From Candidatus Hodarchaeota archaeon (GTDB taxonomy: Archaea; Asgardarchaeota; Heimdallarchaeia; Hodarchaeales; Hodarchaeaceae): a stretch of 45,690 nt of DNA. The notes under the pieces were generated by a model that worked only from the letters and a program-made list of their open reading frames with translations, was not told the origin of the DNA and did no database searches. The position numbers were made by a program, and so were the translations under genes. The stretch lies in the NCBI GenBank assembly GCA_029856365.1, contig JAHQWW010000023.1, positions 1-45,690 of the forward strand. The letters are read 5' to 3'. Of the stretch, positions 3,679 to 44,220 are shown in pieces; within the stretch, counting starts at the first letter, position 1, and each line of letters opens with the position of its first letter.

Positions 3679-4269
3679 GTGATAATTTTGTCAAAGGTGC
3701 CTGAATCAACAGACATGGTTTTTAAGCAACTAGAAATGGCAAGTGAGCTAGAAAGGGTACGATTTGAGCTTACAGGAAGCAATATATCCGTGAAATTTCT
3801 CCAGGACTTTTCCGGTTTTTCTTTTGAAAACATAAATATTCCTTTTGCTTCTAAAGGAAGTCAAATTGATGTTCCTTATTTTATTGCAGAAATATTACGG
3901 AAAAAATCAGTGATTGAAGATTTTAGGATGAATTTTCCTATTACTTTGCAGGACTTAGAAGGGGCAGTTCGTAAAGAAGTTCGTGTGGGTGAATTACAAT
4001 CTCTTCACCCATACTTCCATCTCTTAATGCAAGATTTCGTTTTATCAGTGGAAGATAAAGATTCAGAATTTAGTGAATTAGAACAGAAAAGACAAAAGAC
4101 CAAGTATAATCAATTAACTCACGAAAGAATCTCAAAACTTGTAAAAATGACCGATAGTAGAAAGGTTCTTGCTCAGAAGAAAAAAAATCTGACTTCATCG
4201 GAACAAATCTTATTCAAAAAAATCGTTGATTGCATTCAAAACTGGAAAGCTGAATTCATTCAAAAATAG
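3679..4269 (+). CDS. GINS subunit, Gins23-type (B-domain followed by helical A-domain); start may be a later ATG
   Basis: Beta-rich VKFLQDFSGFSFENINIPFASKGSQIDVPYFIAEIL, then LQSLHPYF and ERISKLVK helical part; 9 bp upstream of mcm, the usual archaeal gins23-mcm arrangement. Confidence 0.8.
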   Translation: MIILSKVPESTDMVFKQLEMASELERVRFELTGSNISVKFLQDFSGFSFENINIPFASKGSQIDVPYFIAEILRKKSVIEDFRMNFPITLQDLEGAVRKEVRVGELQSLHPYFHLLMQDFVLSVEDKDSEFSELEQKRQKTKYNQLTHERISKLVKMTDSRKVLAQKKKNLTSSEQILFKKIVDCIQNWKAEFIQK

Positions 4270-4278
4270 GTCGAAGGT

Positions 4279-7200
4279 TTGTATATGGGTTTTCCATTTG
4301 ATTTAAGGGGTAGATTTGAATCATTCATTGAGGAATTTACGGACCAAGATGGACAATTATATTATCAAGAGAAAATTCGTGAAATGGAAACAATAGGAGC
4401 AAGGAGTCTATATCTCTCATATAATGATTTACTTATTCAAGATCCCAAATTAGCCAAGGAGACTCTAGTAAATCCAGAGTTAAGTATCACCGCAGCTGAG
4501 GAGGTATTGCGTTCAAAACTAGTTGAACTAAATCCTGAGTATTTAGAGCGAATAAAACAAGTTCATGTTAGGATTACAAACCTTTCTGAAAAACTCCTGT
4601 TACGCTCTTTAAAAACTGAACATTTAGAAATTCTCACGTGTTTTGAGGGTATTGTCATTGGAGTGACAGACGCTAAGCCTCTATTAATACGAGGCCATTT
4701 TAAATGCGCTTCTTGTGGTGAAAACCAAACTGTTGATTTTCCTGAGGGTATTTACGCCCCCCCATATCAATGTCGTAATGAACATTGCCAACGAAAAGGA
4801 TCCCTACAGCTGCAATTAGATAGGAGTGATTTTATAGATTGGCAAAAGATAACCTTGCAGGAAAAGCCTGAAGAACTCCCACCAGGGCAACTACCCCAAA
4901 GCACGTCCATCCACGTTCTTGATGACTTAGTAGATCACGCCAGACCTGGGGATCGTGTAGAAATAGTAGGAATTCTTAAAGCAAGAGCATCTCGACTTCT
5001 AAAAAGGGGACAATTGGCTACATATGGGAAATTTTTTCACGGAATTTCGATCTCAAGAGAAACCGAGGAATACGTTGATATCGAGATTTCAGAGGAAGAC
5101 GAGTTAAAAATCATCGATCTCTCGAAATCACCATATATTATTGAGAAAATTCGAGATTCGTTAGCTCCTTCCATTTATGGTCATGATTTGGTAAAAGAAG
5201 CAATTGCATCATTATTGTTCGGTGGAAGCCTCAAGATAACTCCTGATGGAATGAAACTGAGAGGGGAATCAAATATACTCATTGTAGGGGATCCTGGAAC
5301 AGGGAAAAGCCAGATTATGAAATTTATATCGCAGTTGGCCCCACGAGCATTGTATACAACAGGGAAGGGAAGCACTGCAGCGGGATTAACCGCGGCGGTG
5401 ATTAGAGATCAAGATACGGGGGAAATTACCCTTGAGGCTGGAGCTTTGGTTCTCGCAGACCAAGGAATCGCGTGTTTAACTGGAGATGCGAGAATCTTAG
5501 TAGAAAACCGTTTAATCAAAATACAAGATCTATTTACAGAGCAAAAAGCATTTGAAACTTTGTCTAATAATGAAATAGTCGAAATTACTGAATTAAACTT
5601 CAATACTATATCTATCAATTCTGAAATAAAATCAATTCCCTCCATTTCATCTCGAATTAGGAGAAAACAGTATGCAGGAAATATTCTAGAATTTACTTTT
5701 AATTCTGGATTTACAATTAAATTAACTCCTGATCATAAGCTATTAAATGGAAATAGTTTAAACTGGAAGGAAGCTGCTGAATTTAAAAAAGGAGAATTTA
5801 TCGTTGCTCCCTTGAAACTTCCTTATAAGATAACTCCAATTTATATTTTCGATATCTTAACTAATAATTGGTTAGTTATCTTAAATAAAAATGAAAAAGA
5901 AGAACTCCGAAAACGTGTGAAAATGAAATATAGAAGTTATAGTGAGTTCAATAAAAAATACAACATAACTAGAGACTTTCTTTCAGGGAGGAGTCAGATC
6001 AAAATTGGAATACTGAGGAAAATATTGAATGAATTTGGTATATACAAAGATTGGAGATTAAAATGCCTAAAATATGGGAGAAAAGCATCTGGGGAAATAT
6101 TAAAAGTCAGTATGATAACACCTGAACTTGCCTATTTTATTGGATTTATTTATGGTGATGGACACGTCAGGATTTCACAAAAAAGGTCCAATGTCCAAAT
6201 AACTCAATCTTTAGTACATAAAACTCAAATTAAAAACATTAAGAATATGTTTTCACGCTTTTCACAAAGGAATCTTGGAGAATATTATAGAAAAACCTCT
6301 GGAGCTATTGGTAAGCAAGAATTTGAGGGAGAAAGCGTCATTCTATATTCTAACTCAAATTTACTTGCTTATATATATAGTTATTTCACTGAAAAGGGGC
6401 TACACAACCTTTTACAATTACCAGACGAATCTCTAAAAGCCTTTATCGCTGGAGGTCTTGATTCAGATGGTTGTGTCTCAATTAAGAAGGGGAAAAAGGG
6501 GGGTAGGGTCTATGAGAATGTTCACGTTGAATTTTTACTTAGTAATGATCAAGACGAAAATGAAACATTTTTACTTGCTTTGAGGAGATTTGATTGTTAT
6601 GCAAAACTTATAAAACATAAGAGTATAGATAGAATTCTAATAACTGGAAGAACTGATGTTAAACAACTTTTAAATACTGTTAAACAGTATTCTGTTAAAA
6701 TAAGAGACATCCCTCTTAGAAAACATATCGTATCCTCGACCAGTGGAAAAATTCCAAGGATTCCCGTAGCATTAGTAAGTTCTAAGATATTAACAAAAGT
6801 TAAAAAAACGATTTTGTTACAAAGAGGTATATATAGTACATTGTATGCTTATAAAAACCAACAATACCAACCTTCTAGGCAACAATTACTTAAAATTAAA
6901 AATCGAGTTAGAGAATATCTGGATGATGAGATTTTAAATCAGATAGATATTTTGACAACTCGTGACTATTTTTTGGATCAAATAATTGAGATTAAAACTC
7001 AGAAATTCACTGGATATGTATATGATTGTTATGTCCCACAACATCATAACTACTTGTGTAATGGGATAATTGTCCATAATTGTATCGATGAGTTCGATAA
7101 AATGCGCGCAGAAGATCGCAGTGCCATCCATGAAGCGATGGAACAGCATTCATATCATCCATCCTTTGAAATTACTTTCTCTAATGGTAAGAAACATCCA

Positions 7201-36230: not shown

Positions 36231-36983
36231 TCAACTTTGTTGCTTCATCATCTGAATAATAATTTCACGAATTAGACTTTCAACAGATTTGATAACACGG
36301 GTAACACTTAACGGTCTAACTTCTTTTTTTAACCTTCCATTCGCATCTACAATCATACTTCGGTCACTTTTTGAGAGAAGTGCTTTTAAATCATCCCTCG
36401 CTTCCAGGCATGACACTTCAACTATTCTAACGGCTGCATCTCGAAGACTCGTTGTAACTCCTGATTCACTTAATAATTTTCCTACTTCTAGTGATGAAAT
36501 TCGTTGTTCCCTAGGAAGGTCCATCTTATTTAGCATAATGTGATAAGGTAATGCGCCACTAGCTAGTTTATCACCAGCAAGAGTATTGATTTCCTGTAAA
36601 GAGAATTTATTTTCTTCCCATCGAGATTTTTCAGAGTCAACAACGACAATTAAACCATGTGCCCCACGTAGAACGACTTTTCGTTGCCCAGCATGTCGTT
36701 CTTGACCAGGAACAGTAAAGAGATGGTATTTCAGTATTGGCAATCCAGCTGCGGTTTTTCCTACGCCAAAAATCGCCTGATCGAAAAACAACGTCCGACC
36801 TGTGGGATCTTCTAATTTTAAAAATTTATAGACATTCTCAGGATCTTCAAGACTCTTTAATACTTTTGTAATAGTGAGTGCAGTAGTTTTCCCTGCAAGT
36901 GTAGGCCCCCAGAAAACTATTTTGACTACTGGAACCCCTTGATGGTCTCTCTTTATGACTTCAAAGTTAGAATTTGCCTGCAT
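36231..36983 (-). CDS. MglA-family small GTPase
   Basis: KIVFWGPTLAGKTT, GRTLFFD, HLFTVPGQ (MglA-type G3 TxxG), VLRGAHGLIVVVDS, NKMD. Confidence 0.88.
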   Translation of the reverse strand: MQANSNFEVIKRDHQGVPVVKIVFWGPTLAGKTTALTITKVLKSLEDPENVYKFLKLEDPTGRTLFFDQAIFGVGKTAAGLPILKYHLFTVPGQERHAGQRKVVLRGAHGLIVVVDSEKSRWEENKFSLQEINTLAGDKLASGALPYHIMLNKMDLPREQRISSLEVGKLLSESGVTTSLRDAAVRIVEVSCLEARDDLKALLSKSDRSMIVDANGRLKKEVRPLSVTRVIKSVESLIREIIIQMMKQQS

Positions 36984-37021: not shown

Positions 37022-37558
37022 TTAAGTGTTATTTGGTTGTTTCTGTTGTAAAACATGCCTCGTTAAACCAACAAATATTTCCTGAATCTCTTCTCCGCCT
37101 AATTTAGCAGAAGTTTCATAATAAGTCATGTTGTAGGTTTTAGCCAATGTGTTAGCTTCATCGGTAGATATTTGGCGTTCATCTTCTTTATCTTTCTTAT
37201 TTCCAGCCAAAGCTATCGGAACCGAAGCGTCAGGAATGTGTTTCCGAAATTCCGCCAACCAATCAGGAATAGCTACAAATGATGTTCTTTCGTCTAAAGC
37301 AAACATGATAAGGCAAGCAGAAGCACCTCGATAATAACTTGGTCGTAATTTGCCAAAAAACTCTTGGCCCGCTGTATCAACAAGGATTAACTTGACATTA
37401 TTGCCATCTATTTGGATTGTTTTGGTTGTAATGTCCACTCCGAGTGTAGGTAAATAGTTCGTTGTAAACTTTCCTTCTGCAAATCTCCTTATGAGTGAGG
37501 TTTTTCCTACACTACCTGATCCGATGGCGCAAATTTTGAGTAAATATTCGTCGGGCAC
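37022..37558 (-). CDS. Rab-like small GTPase
   Basis: GSGSVGKT, YLPTLGVD, DTAGQE, YYRGA, GNKKD, ETSAK; GTG start. Confidence 0.94.
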   Translation of the reverse strand: MPDEYLLKICAIGSGSVGKTSLIRRFAEGKFTTNYLPTLGVDITTKTIQIDGNNVKLILVDTAGQEFFGKLRPSYYRGASACLIMFALDERTSFVAIPDWLAEFRKHIPDASVPIALAGNKKDKEDERQISTDEANTLAKTYNMTYYETSAKLGGEEIQEIFVGLTRHVLQQKQPNNT

Positions 37559-37580: not shown

Positions 37581-38483
37581 TTAAATTCCCATCTTCGATA
37601 AATCTTGGAGAGATTTTCGCATGTCCTCAATGAATTCTTCTCTCTCTGAGCGTGTCTTTTTCCTAAGAAGTTCAGTAAATATTACCCTTCCATCTTCAAT
37701 AAAAAGTCTAACTTGATAATCTGATGCGGGAAAAATTCCCGAGGGGAGGTCATCCATCGGCTCCAATTTTACAACATCTTTAGAAAAAAGAGCTAAATGC
37801 TCTTTAATTACGGAAAAGACCAAGTTGCCTATAATGATGATTTCACGCTCCATATTATCAGGCATTTCTAGATCCTTAAGTTTTGTAGATACTTCTTCTA
37901 GAGTAGTTGGTGTGATAGTCTTAATGGGTGCTGTAACTACTACTTCAGTTTCTTTCACAACTTTTGGTGCCGGAGCTGGTTTTGGAGCTGGTGTGGGGGT
38001 TGATACAGGGGTTGATGCTCGAGCCGGGGCTGGTGCAGGGGTTGGTGTGCGAGCTGGTGTGGGGGTTGGTGTGCGAGCTGGCATGGGGGTCGATGTGCGA
38101 GCTGGTGCACGAGCTGGTGCGGGGGCTGGTTTTGGAGCTGATATTTCTGGTACTGAGGTTGTAGGTGCTGCTACTTCTCTTTCCTCGGGTTTTGCACCAA
38201 ATATTGCAAGGAAATCAGCCCCTTCCAATCCTGGATCAAGGCTTTCTATTCGATAGACCATTCCATACTTTTCTTGCCGCATTTGTTGTGCTGCTTTTGC
38301 TGATATGAATTTTCTCCTTACAGGTGCTTTCTCACCTTTCCAAATGAATATTTTACGCGAATCTTCATCAACAATAATGAAAACATTGTCATCAGCAAGA
38401 TCTGCCATCGAAGAAAGAGATGCGGGAGTTAAAGTGCCATCATCTTCTACAGACCATTTTTTAATATATTCAGAATCACTCAA
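37581..38483 (-). CDS. Single-domain gelsolin-like protein with Pro/Thr/Ala-rich linker and C-terminal domain (Asgard 1DGelX-like)
   Basis: DDNVFIIVDEDSRKIFIWKGEKAPVRRKFISAKAAQQM...FLAIF is a gelsolin repeat; PARTPTPT linker; globular C-terminus. Confidence 0.85.
   Translation of the reverse strand: MSDSEYIKKWSVEDDGTLTPASLSSMADLADDNVFIIVDEDSRKIFIWKGEKAPVRRKFISAKAAQQMRQEKYGMVYRIESLDPGLEGADFLAIFGAKPEEREVAAPTTSVPEISAPKPAPAPARAPARTSTPMPARTPTPTPARTPTPAPAPARASTPVSTPTPAPKPAPAPKVVKETEVVVTAPIKTITPTTLEEVSTKLKDLEMPDNMEREIIIIGNLVFSVIKEHLALFSKDVVKLEPMDDLPSGIFPASDYQVRLFIEDGRVIFTELLRKKTRSEREEFIEDMRKSLQDLSKMGI
37964..38140 (-). repeat. Imperfect coding tandem repeats (~24-bp unit, PARTPTPx)
   Basis: GGGGTTGGTGTGCGAGCTGGTGTG-like unit repeated about three times, flanked by APKPAPAP copies. 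Confidence 0.85.
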
Positions 38484-38527: not shown

Positions 38528-38601
38528 TAGTTCATGCTAGTTAAATATGTTGTTATAATTGTTATAATTGCTAGTTCTTGCTAGTTAAATATGTTGTTAT
38601 A
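38528..38601. repeat. Two 30-bp direct repeats (period 44 bp, 1 mismatch) in a divergent intergenic region
   Basis: TAGTTCATGCTAGTTAAATATGTTGTTATA (38528-38557) and TAGTTCTTGCTAGTTAAATATGTTGTTATA (38572-38601). Confidence 0.88.
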
Positions 38602-38741
38602 TTTATTATAATCTGGTGGCACACAACCAAAACTCAAAAATAAGTATCTATTCATTTTTTGGAAGCAATCTTTTTTTAAAATTACTCAAGGTTTTAAAAT
38701 TCACTAAGCTCATTAAAATCTAAAACTATAGGAGAATAAAA

Positions 38742-39572
38742 ATGATAAAAGATCCTTGGTTGGAAAGAGGATTGGTTGAACTCCAGCAAAGTCACTGGTT
38801 TGATGGTTTTCAAATGTTGCAAGGAGCTATTCGAAGAGCATTTCGCTATGGTGATCCTGATCGTGCTAAAATGGTAATTTCTAAGGCTATACCTCTTTTT
38901 GCTTCAGGAAATCAGGCAAAATTGGCTTGTGATCTAGTACTTGCTCTTATAATGGGTATCAGTCGAAAAATAAACGAAAGAGTATATGTTGAATTAATCC
39001 CAATTACATTAGTAAATTTAAGATTAGCTTCTCTTGAAAATTGCGTTCAGACTGTCTGTAATCAGATAATAATAGAAAAGGTTTTTCAGAGGTCAGAATT
39101 CCTTTCACACTTACATGATTTAATTCTTGAAGCTAATTTCAATCCTAATGTAGTTTCTGATCTCTATTTTTGTTATGCAGGATTATTATGTAACAAAAAG
39201 GATTTTGTAGCATGCTTTGAAACCTTATACTCTTGGAGTCAAGAATCTTCATTTCTCTCCCCAAAAATGAGAGCATATTTGACCCTGGCTGAAATTAATG
39301 CTTATGAAATAGAAGATTGTGGGAAGTATCTTCAAATGGGAGAGACAGTAGTTTTGTCAGAATCCGACACAGATAGTTATCTTGAAATTGCAAATAGAAT
39401 ATTCGGCGCAGTACAAACATCAGATAATTCTGAATTCTATTCTACAATAGCTGATTACTCTGATTTGATTAATGCCAAAAAAGATGGGTTATTAAAAGCA
39501 TTATGTGATGGAATCTCTGAAATTTTGAATAATAAATCCAGTTCTGGACTTTTGTCATTGTTTAAATCCTAA
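38742..39572 (+). CDS. Alpha-solenoid protein resembling eukaryotic Get4/TRC35 (alternatively a SNAP/TPR-like solenoid)
   Basis: WFDGFQM..IRR..RA..LFASGNQAKLACDL at the N-terminus; DLYFCYAGLLCNKKDF in the middle; YLEIANRIFGAVQTSDNSEFYSTIADY..D..CDGI..SSSGLL at the C-terminus; AGGAG RBS. Confidence 0.6.
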   Translation: MIKDPWLERGLVELQQSHWFDGFQMLQGAIRRAFRYGDPDRAKMVISKAIPLFASGNQAKLACDLVLALIMGISRKINERVYVELIPITLVNLRLASLENCVQTVCNQIIIEKVFQRSEFLSHLHDLILEANFNPNVVSDLYFCYAGLLCNKKDFVACFETLYSWSQESSFLSPKMRAYLTLAEINAYEIEDCGKYLQMGETVVLSESDTDSYLEIANRIFGAVQTSDNSEFYSTIADYSDLINAKKDGLLKALCDGISEILNNKSSSGLLSLFKS

Positions 39573-40085
39573 AATTATCGCAAGAACTTCTTTGACTGCA
39601 TCTTTTCCTGTTTTTGCCGTCAGAATTTGAACTTTAGAACTTTGATGATCAATAAACCCGCGTTCACCAATCTTTTGACTCCAACCAGAAATCGAACTTA
39701 TACAAACAATTGGCTTTTGATAAATCCACGCAAATGTTATCTCTGTCAATGTACCTGCGCCTCCTCCACATGCAATCACGCCATCGCTAGCTAAGGGGAC
39801 GATAGCATTACGGGCTTGATTCATTAGTGTGGGAATTCTTATAGTGAGATATTCATTCACTTCAGGATCAGTTTCATTCGTTGGAAGTATCCCAACAGAA
39901 ATTCCACCTATATCATGTACTCCCTTACATGCTGCTTCCATGACTCCTCCCCGTCCACCGCAGATAAGAATTGCCTTTGATTGTGCAATTTCCTTACCAA
40001 TTTCATAACTAATATCATACTGGGCCTTGGATCGGATTTGTGAATCACCAATGACACCAATCTGAATTTTTTTTCCAATTACCAT
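39555..40085 (-). CDS. LOG/TIGR00725-family Rossmann-fold nucleotide-binding protein
   Basis: IGVIG, CGGRGGVMEAACKG, VGILP, ARNAIV, GGGAGTLTEI. Confidence 0.9.
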   Translation of the reverse strand: MVIGKKIQIGVIGDSQIRSKAQYDISYEIGKEIAQSKAILICGGRGGVMEAACKGVHDIGGISVGILPTNETDPEVNEYLTIRIPTLMNQARNAIVPLASDGVIACGGGAGTLTEITFAWIYQKPIVCISSISGWSQKIGERGFIDHQSSKVQILTAKTGKDAVKEVLAIILGFKQ

Positions 40086-40660
40086 TACTTTATTTTCCAG
40101 AATTCTTTTTTTCCTTTTAACGAAGGAACAATTTGCTTATAGGCATTATTAAACTGAATCTGTAGAGATTTGGGATTAAGATGATCTAAAAAAACCGCAA
40201 GGGAACTAACTTCAGAATGTGGTTGATTCGAAATTGCTATATTCCAATCTGCATATTGGAATATTTTGCTAGGGATTTTCTTTCCCCCAACCACAACTAA
40301 CAAGTTCTCTAGTCCTTTTTTCATATTGGCAAAGTCTTTTGATTTCTCAAAAATAGATAGATTTTCTCCATACATTGTAAGATGTATAATTTTATTGTCA
40401 CTATTCCTCCTCCATTGCTCTATGAAAGTCCTCCATTTATCATAGGAAATCATTTCCAGACAAAAATTTCCTCCCCATTCCAAATTAACTTGGCGAATTG
40501 TGGCGAGGAGTTTTTTATCTTCATCCCCAGCAATAATTATTTTGACCGCTCCAAAAGCTCGAGCTACAAGAGCTAGGTGAGTAGTAATCCTCTTATCACG
40601 ATTAATCCGATGACCAATTCGAAGAATAGTGACCAATCGTAGGTCGCTCTCATATTTCAT
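40085..40660 (-). CDS. trm56: tRNA (cytidine-56-2'-O)-methyltransferase (SPOUT)
   Basis: LRIGHR..RDKRITTHLALVARAFGA, WGGNF, HLTMYG, NQPHSEVSSLAVFLD. Confidence 0.95.
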   Translation of the reverse strand: MKYESDLRLVTILRIGHRINRDKRITTHLALVARAFGAVKIIIAGDEDKKLLATIRQVNLEWGGNFCLEMISYDKWRTFIEQWRRNSDNKIIHLTMYGENLSIFEKSKDFANMKKGLENLLVVVGGKKIPSKIFQYADWNIAISNQPHSEVSSLAVFLDHLNPKSLQIQFNNAYKQIVPSLKGKKEFWKIK

Positions 40661-41215
40661 TTATTTTGCTTGCATCAAAAATATACGGATATTATGAGCC
40701 AATTCATTGAAGGATTCATCAACATTTTCACCTGTTTTAGCTGAAGTCTCCAAGTAGGGAATGTTACAATTGAATTGGAATTTTTTCTTGAGGTCTTCAG
40801 CGAATTCCAGAGCTTCATCTTTAGTGACGCAATCATCCTCTTCCTCTCTTAAATCCACTTTATTTCCTAAGACAGCGACGGGCATTGCTCCTCGGCCAGA
40901 GTTTTTGAATAGCTCTTCGATCCAGGCGTTTAAATTGTCGAAAGAATCTCGTCGAGTAATATCAAATACTAATAATCCTCCATGGGAGCCTTTGTAATAA
41001 AGTTCTCTGACACTATTGAATCGTGGTTGTCCTGCAAGATCCCAGATTTGAAATTTAACGTCTTTTTCCCCTTCTTCCGTCATTATTCTTGTTTTTTTTA
41101 CAGCAAAGTCTGCGCCAATCGTCATCACGTACCCACTAGAAAATTGTTTGCCTAAATACCGCTCACGTAAAGCAGTTTTTCCCACTGCTCCGTCACCTAG
41201 CAAACAAACTTTCAT
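40661..41215 (-). CDS. Rab-like small GTPase
   Basis: GDGAVGKT, YVMTIGADF, IWDLAGQPRF, YYKG, GNKVD, ETSAKTGENV. Confidence 0.94.
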   Translation of the reverse strand: MKVCLLGDGAVGKTALRERYLGKQFSSGYVMTIGADFAVKKTRIMTEEGEKDVKFQIWDLAGQPRFNSVRELYYKGSHGGLLVFDITRRDSFDNLNAWIEELFKNSGRGAMPVAVLGNKVDLREEEDDCVTKDEALEFAEDLKKKFQFNCNIPYLETSAKTGENVDESFNELAHNIRIFLMQAK

Positions 41216-41937: not shown

Positions 41938-44220
41938 ATGGTCGGACTGAAGATATCTTCAGAAGAAATCAAGGAAATTATCCCAATACTTGGGTTAACC
42001 GATGATGATCAAGGGAAAGTCTATTTAAGTCTGCTTTCTTTTGGGATGGCAACTCTAGGCCAGATTAGTTTGCTTTCAGGATTAGATTATATAAAAACAC
42101 AAGAAGCTCTCCATATTTTAGTAGGTAGTAAACTTGCAAAAAGAATTCCAGGAAAAGTTGGACGATATGTAGCCTTGGAACCATTTTTAAAAGCTTTTTT
42201 TCTCGCCTATGATCCAATCACTCTGGTTAACATCCGTAAAGAAGCTTCAGGTGCTTTTCAGATTCAAGTGAAGCAAATTGCTGATATTTTTACTGAAGCA
42301 ATAGAGGCTTTTCAAAAACATACAGCGGGACTAGAAAATGACTTCTCACAAGGTTTAGATCCAATTAAACTGAACTTAGACAAGCATACTGATAATTTTC
42401 GCCAAATAATCGAATCTTCCGAAAAAAATATGCTAATTAATATCGGAGAACTTAAGAACGAGACTCAGCTGTTAATAAAGCAAACAAAAAAACTTAATGA
42501 AGAAATTACTAAAGTTAATCTTGAAAAAATAAAGACTATCCCTGACATTCTCGATCCTTACACTCCCAAAGTTACACAGAAATTAAAAACAACAACTAAT
42601 ATAATTGATAAAGATCTTGAAAGACTTAGGATGGACAGTAAGACTAACCTTGAATTATTAAGAACCAATATTGATGAGGAAATAACAGAATATTCAGAGG
42701 AAATCGAGGGAATTCTTGATCAATTTGAAACTAATCGTTCTGAAGAGCAAAATAATTTCGATAGAAAAATTGGAAAAGTAAGTTTACTGTTAGACAATCT
42801 TCGGTCAAATGCGATTCAAAAAAAGTCTAAATTCCTTGAAATTAGACAAGGATACAAAGATATTGATGAAGTGGTGAAGGATCTATTTACTGAAATCGTT
42901 AACCGACTTAATAATATGGAATCATCATTAGCTAACTCAATAAATGATATACAGAGTAGAAAATTATTCAAAGGAAAGGATGAATTCATTTCTAACCTGA
43001 TACGATTAGATGGAGACAGAAAAGCGATTCAACAAATTTTTAAAGAAAATTTAATGATATTGGAAAAGGTTGCTAGTTTGAATAGTACTTTGAATGAAAC
43101 AGAGAACGTTATTGTTCAAGCAACTGAGACTGGTTTGACCGAAGTGCAGAAAATATTAGATGAAGAGGTTCAGCTCCTTTCACACGACTTGCAAGATATT
43201 AAACTTAAGATTGGCACTGATTTTAGAAATTTGATCCAAGTCTATCTAAACAAAAGAAAAAAAGATATAAAAGCAAAAATAGGGGATGTAGAAACTGTAT
43301 TTGATCAAAAAATTAACGACTTTAATGAACAGGTGGATAAAATTACTGATAAATTCTCTAATGAAATTTCGAATTTAATTCAACATACTGCTGAAGAGTT
43401 TGAGGTTAATCTGGAATCCTATTTTAAGAATGTAGAAACCTTCGATGTAAGTATAAACACTTTTAATGACATTTTAAATAAAACTGACGAGCTAGGCGAA
43501 CAATCTAGCAATAAATTAAAAATTATATTAGATCAGATCACTGATCTTGAAAGAACTTTTAGTTTATTCATCTCTGGAATGAATACTATCGTAACAAGTT
43601 TTGCAGATGCTCAATTGGAAAATTTTAGTTCCACATTGGATAAAACTGATGAAATTATAAATACTCGGGTTGTTAAAATTGAACAGCAACTCGAACAAGA
43701 GATATCTGCTTTAACGTTTTCTATAAAAGAAATGAAACAAAAGCTTGACAAAATTACTGAACTGTCCAGATTGGTTGGTATTTCGGAAGTTGAATCTTCG
43801 TTACTTTCCAGTGACTTAGTTGTTGGAGAAACAGCTATAATAATGATGCTAAGAGACTTAACATTACGTGCTAAATCCTCTTTGACGATTTTGATGCCTC
43901 GTCCAGAACTTCAGACATTAATGGTAGCCTCTAAATTACCAATGAAGACTCGAGTGATTATCATTGGTGATTTTACCAAGGTTCCTGAGTCAACACTAAA
44001 GAAAATCTTATCTTCAGCTAATCTTAGATTAAAACAATTAGATACTATAGATTTCTGGGGGTGTATTCGTGATGCAGAGGAGCTATTGGTTTGTCCAGAG
44101 CCCAAACATCCCGACAAAGAAGGACTCATTGGGGTAATTACCACAAACGAAAACCTTGTTGAGCTGTTTTCGCAAGAACTAATGACTTATACGACACGTA
44201 GTCGTGAAATTCTGTTCTAG
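41938..44220 (+). CDS. TrmB-like wHTH + ~520-aa coiled-coil/helical rod + C-terminal PLD-like (TrmB-C) domain
   Basis: LGLTDDDQGKVYLSLL..ATLGQISLLSGL...RYVALEP (TrmB-type wHTH); long heptad region; GETAI..LRDLTLRAKSSLTILMP...CIRDAEELLV...GVITTNENLV without an HxK motif. Confidence 0.72.
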   Translation: MVGLKISSEEIKEIIPILGLTDDDQGKVYLSLLSFGMATLGQISLLSGLDYIKTQEALHILVGSKLAKRIPGKVGRYVALEPFLKAFFLAYDPITLVNIRKEASGAFQIQVKQIADIFTEAIEAFQKHTAGLENDFSQGLDPIKLNLDKHTDNFRQIIESSEKNMLINIGELKNETQLLIKQTKKLNEEITKVNLEKIKTIPDILDPYTPKVTQKLKTTTNIIDKDLERLRMDSKTNLELLRTNIDEEITEYSEEIEGILDQFETNRSEEQNNFDRKIGKVSLLLDNLRSNAIQKKSKFLEIRQGYKDIDEVVKDLFTEIVNRLNNMESSLANSINDIQSRKLFKGKDEFISNLIRLDGDRKAIQQIFKENLMILEKVASLNSTLNETENVIVQATETGLTEVQKILDEEVQLLSHDLQDIKLKIGTDFRNLIQVYLNKRKKDIKAKIGDVETVFDQKINDFNEQVDKITDKFSNEISNLIQHTAEEFEVNLESYFKNVETFDVSINTFNDILNKTDELGEQSSNKLKIILDQITDLERTFSLFISGMNTIVTSFADAQLENFSSTLDKTDEIINTRVVKIEQQLEQEISALTFSIKEMKQKLDKITELSRLVGISEVESSLLSSDLVVGETAIIMMLRDLTLRAKSSLTILMPRPELQTLMVASKLPMKTRVIIIGDFTKVPESTLKKILSSANLRLKQLDTIDFWGCIRDAEELLVCPEPKHPDKEGLIGVITTNENLVELFSQELMTYTTRSREILF

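Follow-up and report, generated by a model that had tools for sequence, protein, structure and literature searches.

A conserved gene of Hodarchaeales-type archaea probably encodes a remote homolog of the Get3 adaptor Get4/TRC35

Introduction

Whether the step that primes Get3 for its clients belongs to eukaryotes alone is the question raised by one gene of a Candidatus Hodarchaeota archaeon. In eukaryotes, the adaptor Get4/TRC35 prepares the ATPase Get3 for taking up tail-anchored membrane proteins. Archaea are known to possess Get3 and Oxa1-type insertases, but the pre-targeting complex of Get4, Get5 and Sgt2 is, to our knowledge, regarded as an invention of the eukaryotes. The gene in question, termed here the Get4-like gene, lies in a stretch of 45,690 nucleotides of contig JAHQWW010000023.1 (assembly GCA_029856365.1), which is the window of this analysis. 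The coordinates of the gene and of the other features are collected in Table 1.

The open reading frame (ORF) is a real, conserved gene. Its product has 42 homologs of 47–98% identity, every one annotated as hypothetical, and public records label these relatives Heimdallarchaeota or Hodarchaeales. The annotated ATG start is supported, because an AGGAG sequence sits 7 nt upstream. A sequence-only reading of the window had described the product as an all-helical protein of 276 residues resembling Get4/TRC35, and had quoted three stretches of it. These stretches are present in the translation, at residues 17–65, 141–155 and 214–271. The AlphaFold2 model, built on a 41-sequence alignment, is all-helical as described, with 15 helices and a mean pLDDT (predicted local distance difference test) of 90.6.

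Homology to Get4/TRC35

The comparisons made use of A1, the alignment and hidden Markov model (HMM) of the family; A2, an alignment of one eukaryotic (protist) GET4 clade; A3, a broader archaeal alignment of 28 sequences; and A7, a joint archaeal and eukaryotic GET4 alignment. Widening the eukaryotic alignment yielded the same protist clade only.

Single sequences gave little. Pfam, which had been suggested as a means of telling GET4 from SNAP, returned no match for the Get4-like protein at E≤1, neither GET4 (PF04190) nor SNAP (PF14938) being among the results, and 41 family members searched as single sequences had no match at E≤10. A six-frame search of the genome with PF04190 found nothing at the Get4-like locus, and the HMM of the eukaryotic A2 did not recover the protein from all ORFs of the genome. 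Aligned by hhalign to A2, the single Get4-like sequence reached an E-value of 0.024 only.

Searches with the family profile were more informative. The A1 HMM gave three matches at E≤10 among 177,635 PDB sequences, and all three are yeast Get4. HMMER aligned family positions 7 to about 70 with yeast positions 17 to about 80, pairing WFDGFQ..GA..R with YYEAHQ..TI..R; the gap-free N-terminal register noticed earlier is thus recovered. The top eight PDB matches of the A3 HMM are yeast Get4 and human TRC35 (E 0.004–0.026), followed by designed helical repeats. Neither of the two PDB searches returned a SNAP chain at E≤10.

Against 1.8 billion representative proteins, the A1 HMM gave 20 matches, of which 17 (E≤1.1e-6) belong by score to the family itself. 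The remaining three, the weakest, have E-values near 1e-4. One of them, P0058, is a repetitive immunoglobulin-like (HYR) protein matched over short stretches and was taken as spurious. Another, P0060, is a divergent relative. The third, the eukaryotic P0059 from EukProt, matches profile positions 13–245 with E 3.2e-4; it is recognized by Pfam as GET4 at 4.4e-32, and is the sole match with a named family among the 20.

Comparison of profile with profile gave the strongest signal. In hhalign, A1 matched A2 with a probability of 78% (E 1.8e-5). When the two archaeal sequences of greatest divergence were omitted, the probability was 96% (E 2.9e-9). The full sets of A3 matched A2 with a probability of 97.5–97.7% (E 2–6e-12) over 255–268 columns, from the N- to the C-terminus. 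The scores of the real alignments were 86–89, as against 17 for reversed sequences (E 0.14–0.19) and 11–22 for 15 column-shuffled controls (E 0.04–0.83). The resemblance to Get4 therefore exceeds chance. Full-length, co-linear profile homology to bona fide GET4 was found in hhalign and in the PDB and 1.8-billion-protein searches, at an identity to eukaryotic GET4 of 13–17%.

ESM-Atlas features of the protein led to the same family. PF04190 accounts for 23 of the 30 nearest clusters, the best of which scores 0.95 with 223 of 256 features shared, and the first SNAP cluster appears at rank 14 (0.85). Homology to Get4/TRC35, and not to SNAP, is supported by every discriminating test based on sequence. 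The relationship first put forward from the letters alone is now backed by the PDB and 1.8-billion-protein profiles, by hhalign with its controls, by the language-model neighbours and by the N-terminal fold search described below. We conclude that the Get4-like protein is very probably a genuine remote homolog of Get4/TRC35.

Fold of the predicted protein

The whole model resembles several solenoids. In Foldseek its best E-value is to Get4 9ns5_B (6.5e-4), with Sec17, TRC35 and PCI proteins close behind, and the Atlas shape search returned generic TPR proteins only. The highest structural Z (about 13) is to alpha-SNAP/Sec17, with a root-mean-square deviation (rmsd) of about 7 Å in the Sec17 alignment. 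For the whole model, alpha-SNAP is indeed the main structural alternative, as had been proposed. Comparison of the whole model does not decide between Get4 and SNAP, and therefore residues 1–133 were folded alone.

The isolated N-terminal domain folded with a pLDDT of 96. In Foldseek, Get4/TRC35 occupies 8 of the 12 top rows and Sec17 ranks 25, the E-values being weak (at least 0.07). In an unbiased VIA-align search of 48,161 chains, three Get4 representatives are among the top 11, in register, and Sec17 is absent from the top 50. Because the isolated domain favours Get4 and Sec17 falls to rank 25, the resemblance of the model to SNAP appears to be one of overall curvature. At the domain level the models prefer Get4, with unrelated solenoids within one Z unit.

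The closest known system is Get4/TRC35 (PF04190, formerly DUF410; PDB 2WPV, 3LKU, 3LPZ, 4PWX, 5BWK, 6AU8, 7RU9, 9NS5). The archaeal model shows an alpha-solenoid within the 14–16 helices of GET4, about 15 in both, with separable N- and C-terminal domains, and its 276 residues compare with about 290–330. Like Get4, it carries in alpha2 an aromatic-aromatic-acidic-x-x-Gln sequence followed by an invariant Arg, and it ends in a Gly-Leu-rich amphipathic tail behind a flexible linker; the tail, residues 267–276, is modelled with low confidence. Unlike fungal Get4, the archaeal protein has no beta-hairpin, and a disordered loop, residues 198–207, takes its place. Alpha-SNAP/Sec17 (PF14938; PDB 1QQE, 9CRU) shares the size and the TPR-like curvature, but it shows no sequence-profile signal, does not match the N-terminal domain and lacks the Get4-type motifs at the termini. 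In contrast to TPR and PCI solenoids such as Rpn7, CSN1, eIF3a and HAP40, the Get4-like protein has neither a PCI winged-helix domain nor a canonical TPR consensus, and no profile similarity to them.

Conserved residues and surfaces

In the joint alignment A7, R32 is invariant, and Q24, L182, L251 and G269 are conserved in at least 90% of the rows, archaeal and eukaryotic. The N-terminal motif W19-F20-D21-G22-x-Q24...G28-A29..R32 corresponds to Y-Y-E-A/G-x-Q......R of GET4. As noted from the sequence at the outset, the Get3-binding motif is diverged: three of the six YYEAHQ positions (the first Y, the A and the H) differ in the archaeal WFDGFQ. The Get4 correspondences proposed for the middle and the C-terminus of the protein were reproduced by both hhalign and A7. 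In the PDB profile alignment, D64 is paired with D74 of yeast Get4, a residue that presumably takes part in the regulatory Get3 contact.

The tail G-L-(F/L)-S-L-F belongs to the most strongly conserved stretches of the archaeal proteins, and is aligned with the end of eukaryotic GET4, GGL(I/F)GN(L/I)(L/M)SLL. In the yeast and metazoan complexes, the C-terminal helix of Get4 completes a lid over the client chamber of Get3 (PMC12506534). A conserved pocket in the C-terminal domain of Get4 accommodates Get5-N or Bag6 (bioRxiv 10.1101/154351). Among the archaeal proteins, the peaks of conservation are at alpha1-alpha2, at helices 173–197 and 239–266, and at the tail. The two helices, 173–197 (YLTLAEINAYEIE.CGKYL) and 239–266 (DGLLKALCDGISEI), are the most conserved of the C-terminal domain, and align co-linearly with the part of Get4 in which the groove for Get5/Bag6 lies. 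The archaeal peaks would thus parallel the three functional surfaces of Get4, and the strong conservation of the C-terminal helices suggests that they hold some partner.

Distribution of the family

The A1 HMM found a single copy of the gene in 22 of 22 genomes of the GTDB genus, the source genome included. It found none in the two genomes of the sister family, and one in about 376 other Asgard genomes (G396, E 1e-7). A second profile, A6, made from P0060 and the G396 ORF, detects a sister-family member (genome G079, ORF L067:1498-2370:-) whose product ends in GGLFPLF, and matches the proteins of the genus in return. The three divergent sequences (P0060, G396 and G079) match A1 with a probability of 97.6% (E 3.5e-12). 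The family thus predates the genus and evolves fast. Within the 21 congeners of the source genome, the Get4-like protein diverges faster (34–78% identity) than the products of the flanking genes (51–95%). The family is currently detectable mainly in Hodarchaeales-type genomes; unlike eukaryotic Get4, it is archaeal and belongs to one such lineage and a few very divergent relatives.

GET-pathway partners

The Get4-like protein co-occurs with a Get3 homolog, as Get4 does. Of the 21 congeners, 20 have a single-domain Get3/ArsA homolog, as do 372 of 399 Asgard genomes. Get3 of the congeners (PF02374, E about 1e-83) has about 317 residues, a CxxC motif, a Met-rich segment and a QELYSEF motif. The Get4-like gene is unlinked to it. 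Get3 is missing from the source assembly, which is 84% complete. Loss of the gene was considered and rejected. Of the two Get3-flanking orthologs, one (about 4022–4672) runs to the end of contig C38, at 4672 of 4673, and the other (about 74375–74862 of contig C91) lies within 280 bp of the contig end. The Get3 locus falls between these two ends, that is, in an assembly gap.

When genomes with and without the Get4-like gene were compared at the Get3 residue equivalent to yeast K69 and at the residues behind the CxxC motif, the differences had no clear reading. In addition to the Get3-like gene, two congeners (G070:C25:12094-14060 and G058:C84:33899-35868) have two ArsA-family genes in tandem (E 1e-55 to 1e-69), which may be the separated halves of a two-domain ArsA arsenite-pump ATPase.

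An insertase of the EMC3/TMCO1 type (DUF106, Oxa1 superfamily) is encoded in five of five genomes tested. CHD5 (Get1/WRB) was not detected, a weak negative as the control genomes also gave no match, and Get2 was not searched for. The search for partners advised by the sequence-only reading succeeded for Get3 in the congeners, whereas five genomes of the genus gave no match to the dimerisation domain of Sgt2/SGTA (SGTA_dimer); no specific search was made for Get5 or Bag6. SNARE-like tail-anchored proteins are reported in Heimdallarchaeota (bioRxiv 10.1101/810531), and therefore candidate clients may exist.

Proposed function and alternative explanations

We propose that the Get4-like protein is a two-domain TPR-like alpha-solenoid and a very divergent archaeal member of Get4/TRC35. 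The conserved alpha1-alpha2 face would dock on the closed, ATP-bound Get3 dimer, and the amphipathic tail, GLFSLF, would form part of the lid covering the client groove of Get3. An upstream partner, held by the conserved helices of the C-terminal domain, would pass tail-anchored proteins on to Get3. Get3 would carry these clients to the membrane, for which an Oxa1-superfamily (DUF106/EMC3-type) insertase is encoded. Binding to Get3, regulation of its ATPase, client hand-over and the identity of the partner are all inferred from the eukaryotic system. That the protein acts on Get3 as an adaptor is the reading to which we lean, if only slightly.

Several points weigh against it. The protein does not reach the Pfam gathering threshold of GET4 (PF04190). 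Among the structural results, the whole model is undecided, with its best Z to alpha-SNAP, and the preference of the N-terminal domain for Get4 is narrow. The Get3-contacting motif is diverged (WFDGFQ versus YYEAHQ). The strongest conservation is in the C-terminal domain, where helix 173–197 has a mean entropy of 0.53, and not in the N-terminal domain. Finally, Get3 is near-universal in Asgard archaea, whereas the Get4-like family is confined to one lineage. The diverged motif, the site of strongest conservation and the narrow distribution would fit a true Get4 homolog with a client other than Get3, for example a scaffold for a chaperone or quality-control factor, or for a partner bound by the conserved C-terminal domain and the tail. 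We hold this to be unlikely, though it is the best placed of the alternatives. The residues that the family has in common with eukaryotic GET4 in all rows (Q24, R32 and G269-L270) fall within the two regions in contact with Get3 in yeast, and no alternative partner was found for the Get4-like protein.

Somewhat less credible is a lineage-specific TPR-like scaffold whose likeness to Get4 is convergent or common to the TPR clan, and which perhaps works with the gelsolin-like and small-GTPase neighbours. Profile searches returned GET4 alone, end to end and with clean controls, and no general TPR families. The gene and the gelsolin operon are read in divergent directions, and its synteny with the gelsolin and GTPase genes is seen in close relatives only, and equally for unrelated housekeeping genes (aTrm56, SLOG). 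An alpha-SNAP/Sec17-like adaptor, linking the SNARE-like tail-anchored proteins of Heimdallarchaeia to an AAA+ ATPase, would account for the best Z of the whole model, yet we regard it as very improbable. SNAP chains are missing from the PDB profile searches at E≤10, 13 GET4 clusters precede the first SNAP cluster in ESM-Atlas, Sec17 leaves the N-terminal domain unmatched (Foldseek rank 25, outside the VIA-align top 50), and its alignment to the model has the large rmsd given above.

The locus and its neighbours

The G+C content of the window is 32–40%, and Ras/Arf-type GTPases, a gelsolin-like gene and aTrm56 are all encoded in it, a set in keeping with an Asgard archaeon. The Get4-like gene is monocistronic, divergent from the upstream gelsolin-like gene and convergent with the downstream SLOG/LOG-like gene, with which its 3′ end overlaps by 18 bp (39555–39572). 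This order is conserved in all or nearly all of the 21 congeners, with the gelsolin-like and Ras-like genes upstream on the other strand and SLOG and aTrm56 converging downstream; the gelsolin-like match is absent at two congener loci. An operon with the gelsolin and GTPase genes was considered and rejected, the Get4-like gene being on the opposite strand.

Table 1. Positions of the Get4-like gene, its parts and nearby features in the window.
Feature	Position	Strand	Description
Get4-like gene	38742–39572	+	276 residues and stop codon; ORF, homologs, synteny
Shine-Dalgarno-like AGGAG	38730–38734	+	7 nt ahead of ATG; read directly
N-terminal domain, residues 1–133	38742–39140	+	seven helices; putative counterpart of the Get3-binding N-terminal domain of Get4
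Conserved alpha1-alpha2 patch, residues 5–35	38754–38846	+	W6, G10, W19-F20-D21-G22, Q24, G28, A29, R32
C-terminal domain, residues 134–266	39141–39539	+	AlphaFold2 model, hhalign, conservation
C-terminal tail, residues 267–276	39540–39569	+	low pLDDT; amphipathic motif G269-L270-x-S272-L273-F274
Direct repeat, first copy	38536–38557		22 bp
Direct repeat, second copy	38580–38601		22 bp
Gelsolin-like gene	37581–38483	-	300 residues
Ras-like GTPase gene	37022–37558	-	co-oriented with gelsolin-like gene
Arf/MglA-like GTPase gene	36231–36983	-	co-oriented with gelsolin-like gene
SLOG/LOG-like gene	39555–40085	-	
aTrm56 gene	40085–40660	-	
Second Ras-like GTPase gene	40661–41215	-	
TrmB-type gene	41938–44220	+	760 residues

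The divergent intergenic region between the gelsolin-like and Get4-like genes is 258 bp long and contains a perfect 22-bp direct repeat, GCTAGTTAAATATGTTGTTATA, whose copies start 44 bp apart. The pair may be binding sites for a regulator. The gelsolin-like protein matches the gelsolin repeat weakly at its N-terminus, with an E-value of 0.0013 that misses the Pfam cut-off. It also has a long linker rich in Pro, Ala and Thr, and its C-terminal domain is without a Pfam family. Its gene heads a co-oriented row with the Ras-like and Arf/MglA-like GTPase genes. On the other side, the SLOG, aTrm56 and second Ras-like GTPase genes follow one another on the minus strand with zero gaps. Farther along, after a gap of about 720 bp, the TrmB-type gene encodes an N-terminal winged helix-turn-helix of that type (E 1.8e-5) followed by several hundred coiled-coil-like residues.

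Implications

The Get4-like proteins seem to form a new, archaeal branch of the GET4 family that lies below the Pfam threshold and would lack the known eukaryotic partners. In the literature covered, with Eme et al. 2023 and a 2026 Nature paper on Asgard contributions among it, no link between Get4 and Asgard archaea was found; the coverage is incomplete, and a prior description is possible.

Tentatively, and with the balance somewhat against it, a Get4-type adaptor of Get3 may already have been present in the Asgard lineage ancestral to eukaryotes and have been inherited vertically. The pre-targeting step would then predate the last eukaryotic common ancestor. It would have worked with an Oxa1-type insertase before Get1/2, Get5 and Sgt2, and would survive mainly in Hodarchaeales-type archaea as fast-evolving descendants.

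If the homology and the function hold, an archaeal Get4 would add a eukaryotic signature protein to a lineage that is often placed nearest the eukaryotes. Regulated loading of Get3 would be older than the endoplasmic reticulum, and Get3 with the Get4-like protein would offer a minimal system for testing the role of Get4 without Get5 and Sgt2. A Get3-priming step supposed to be restricted to eukaryotes may thus predate them.
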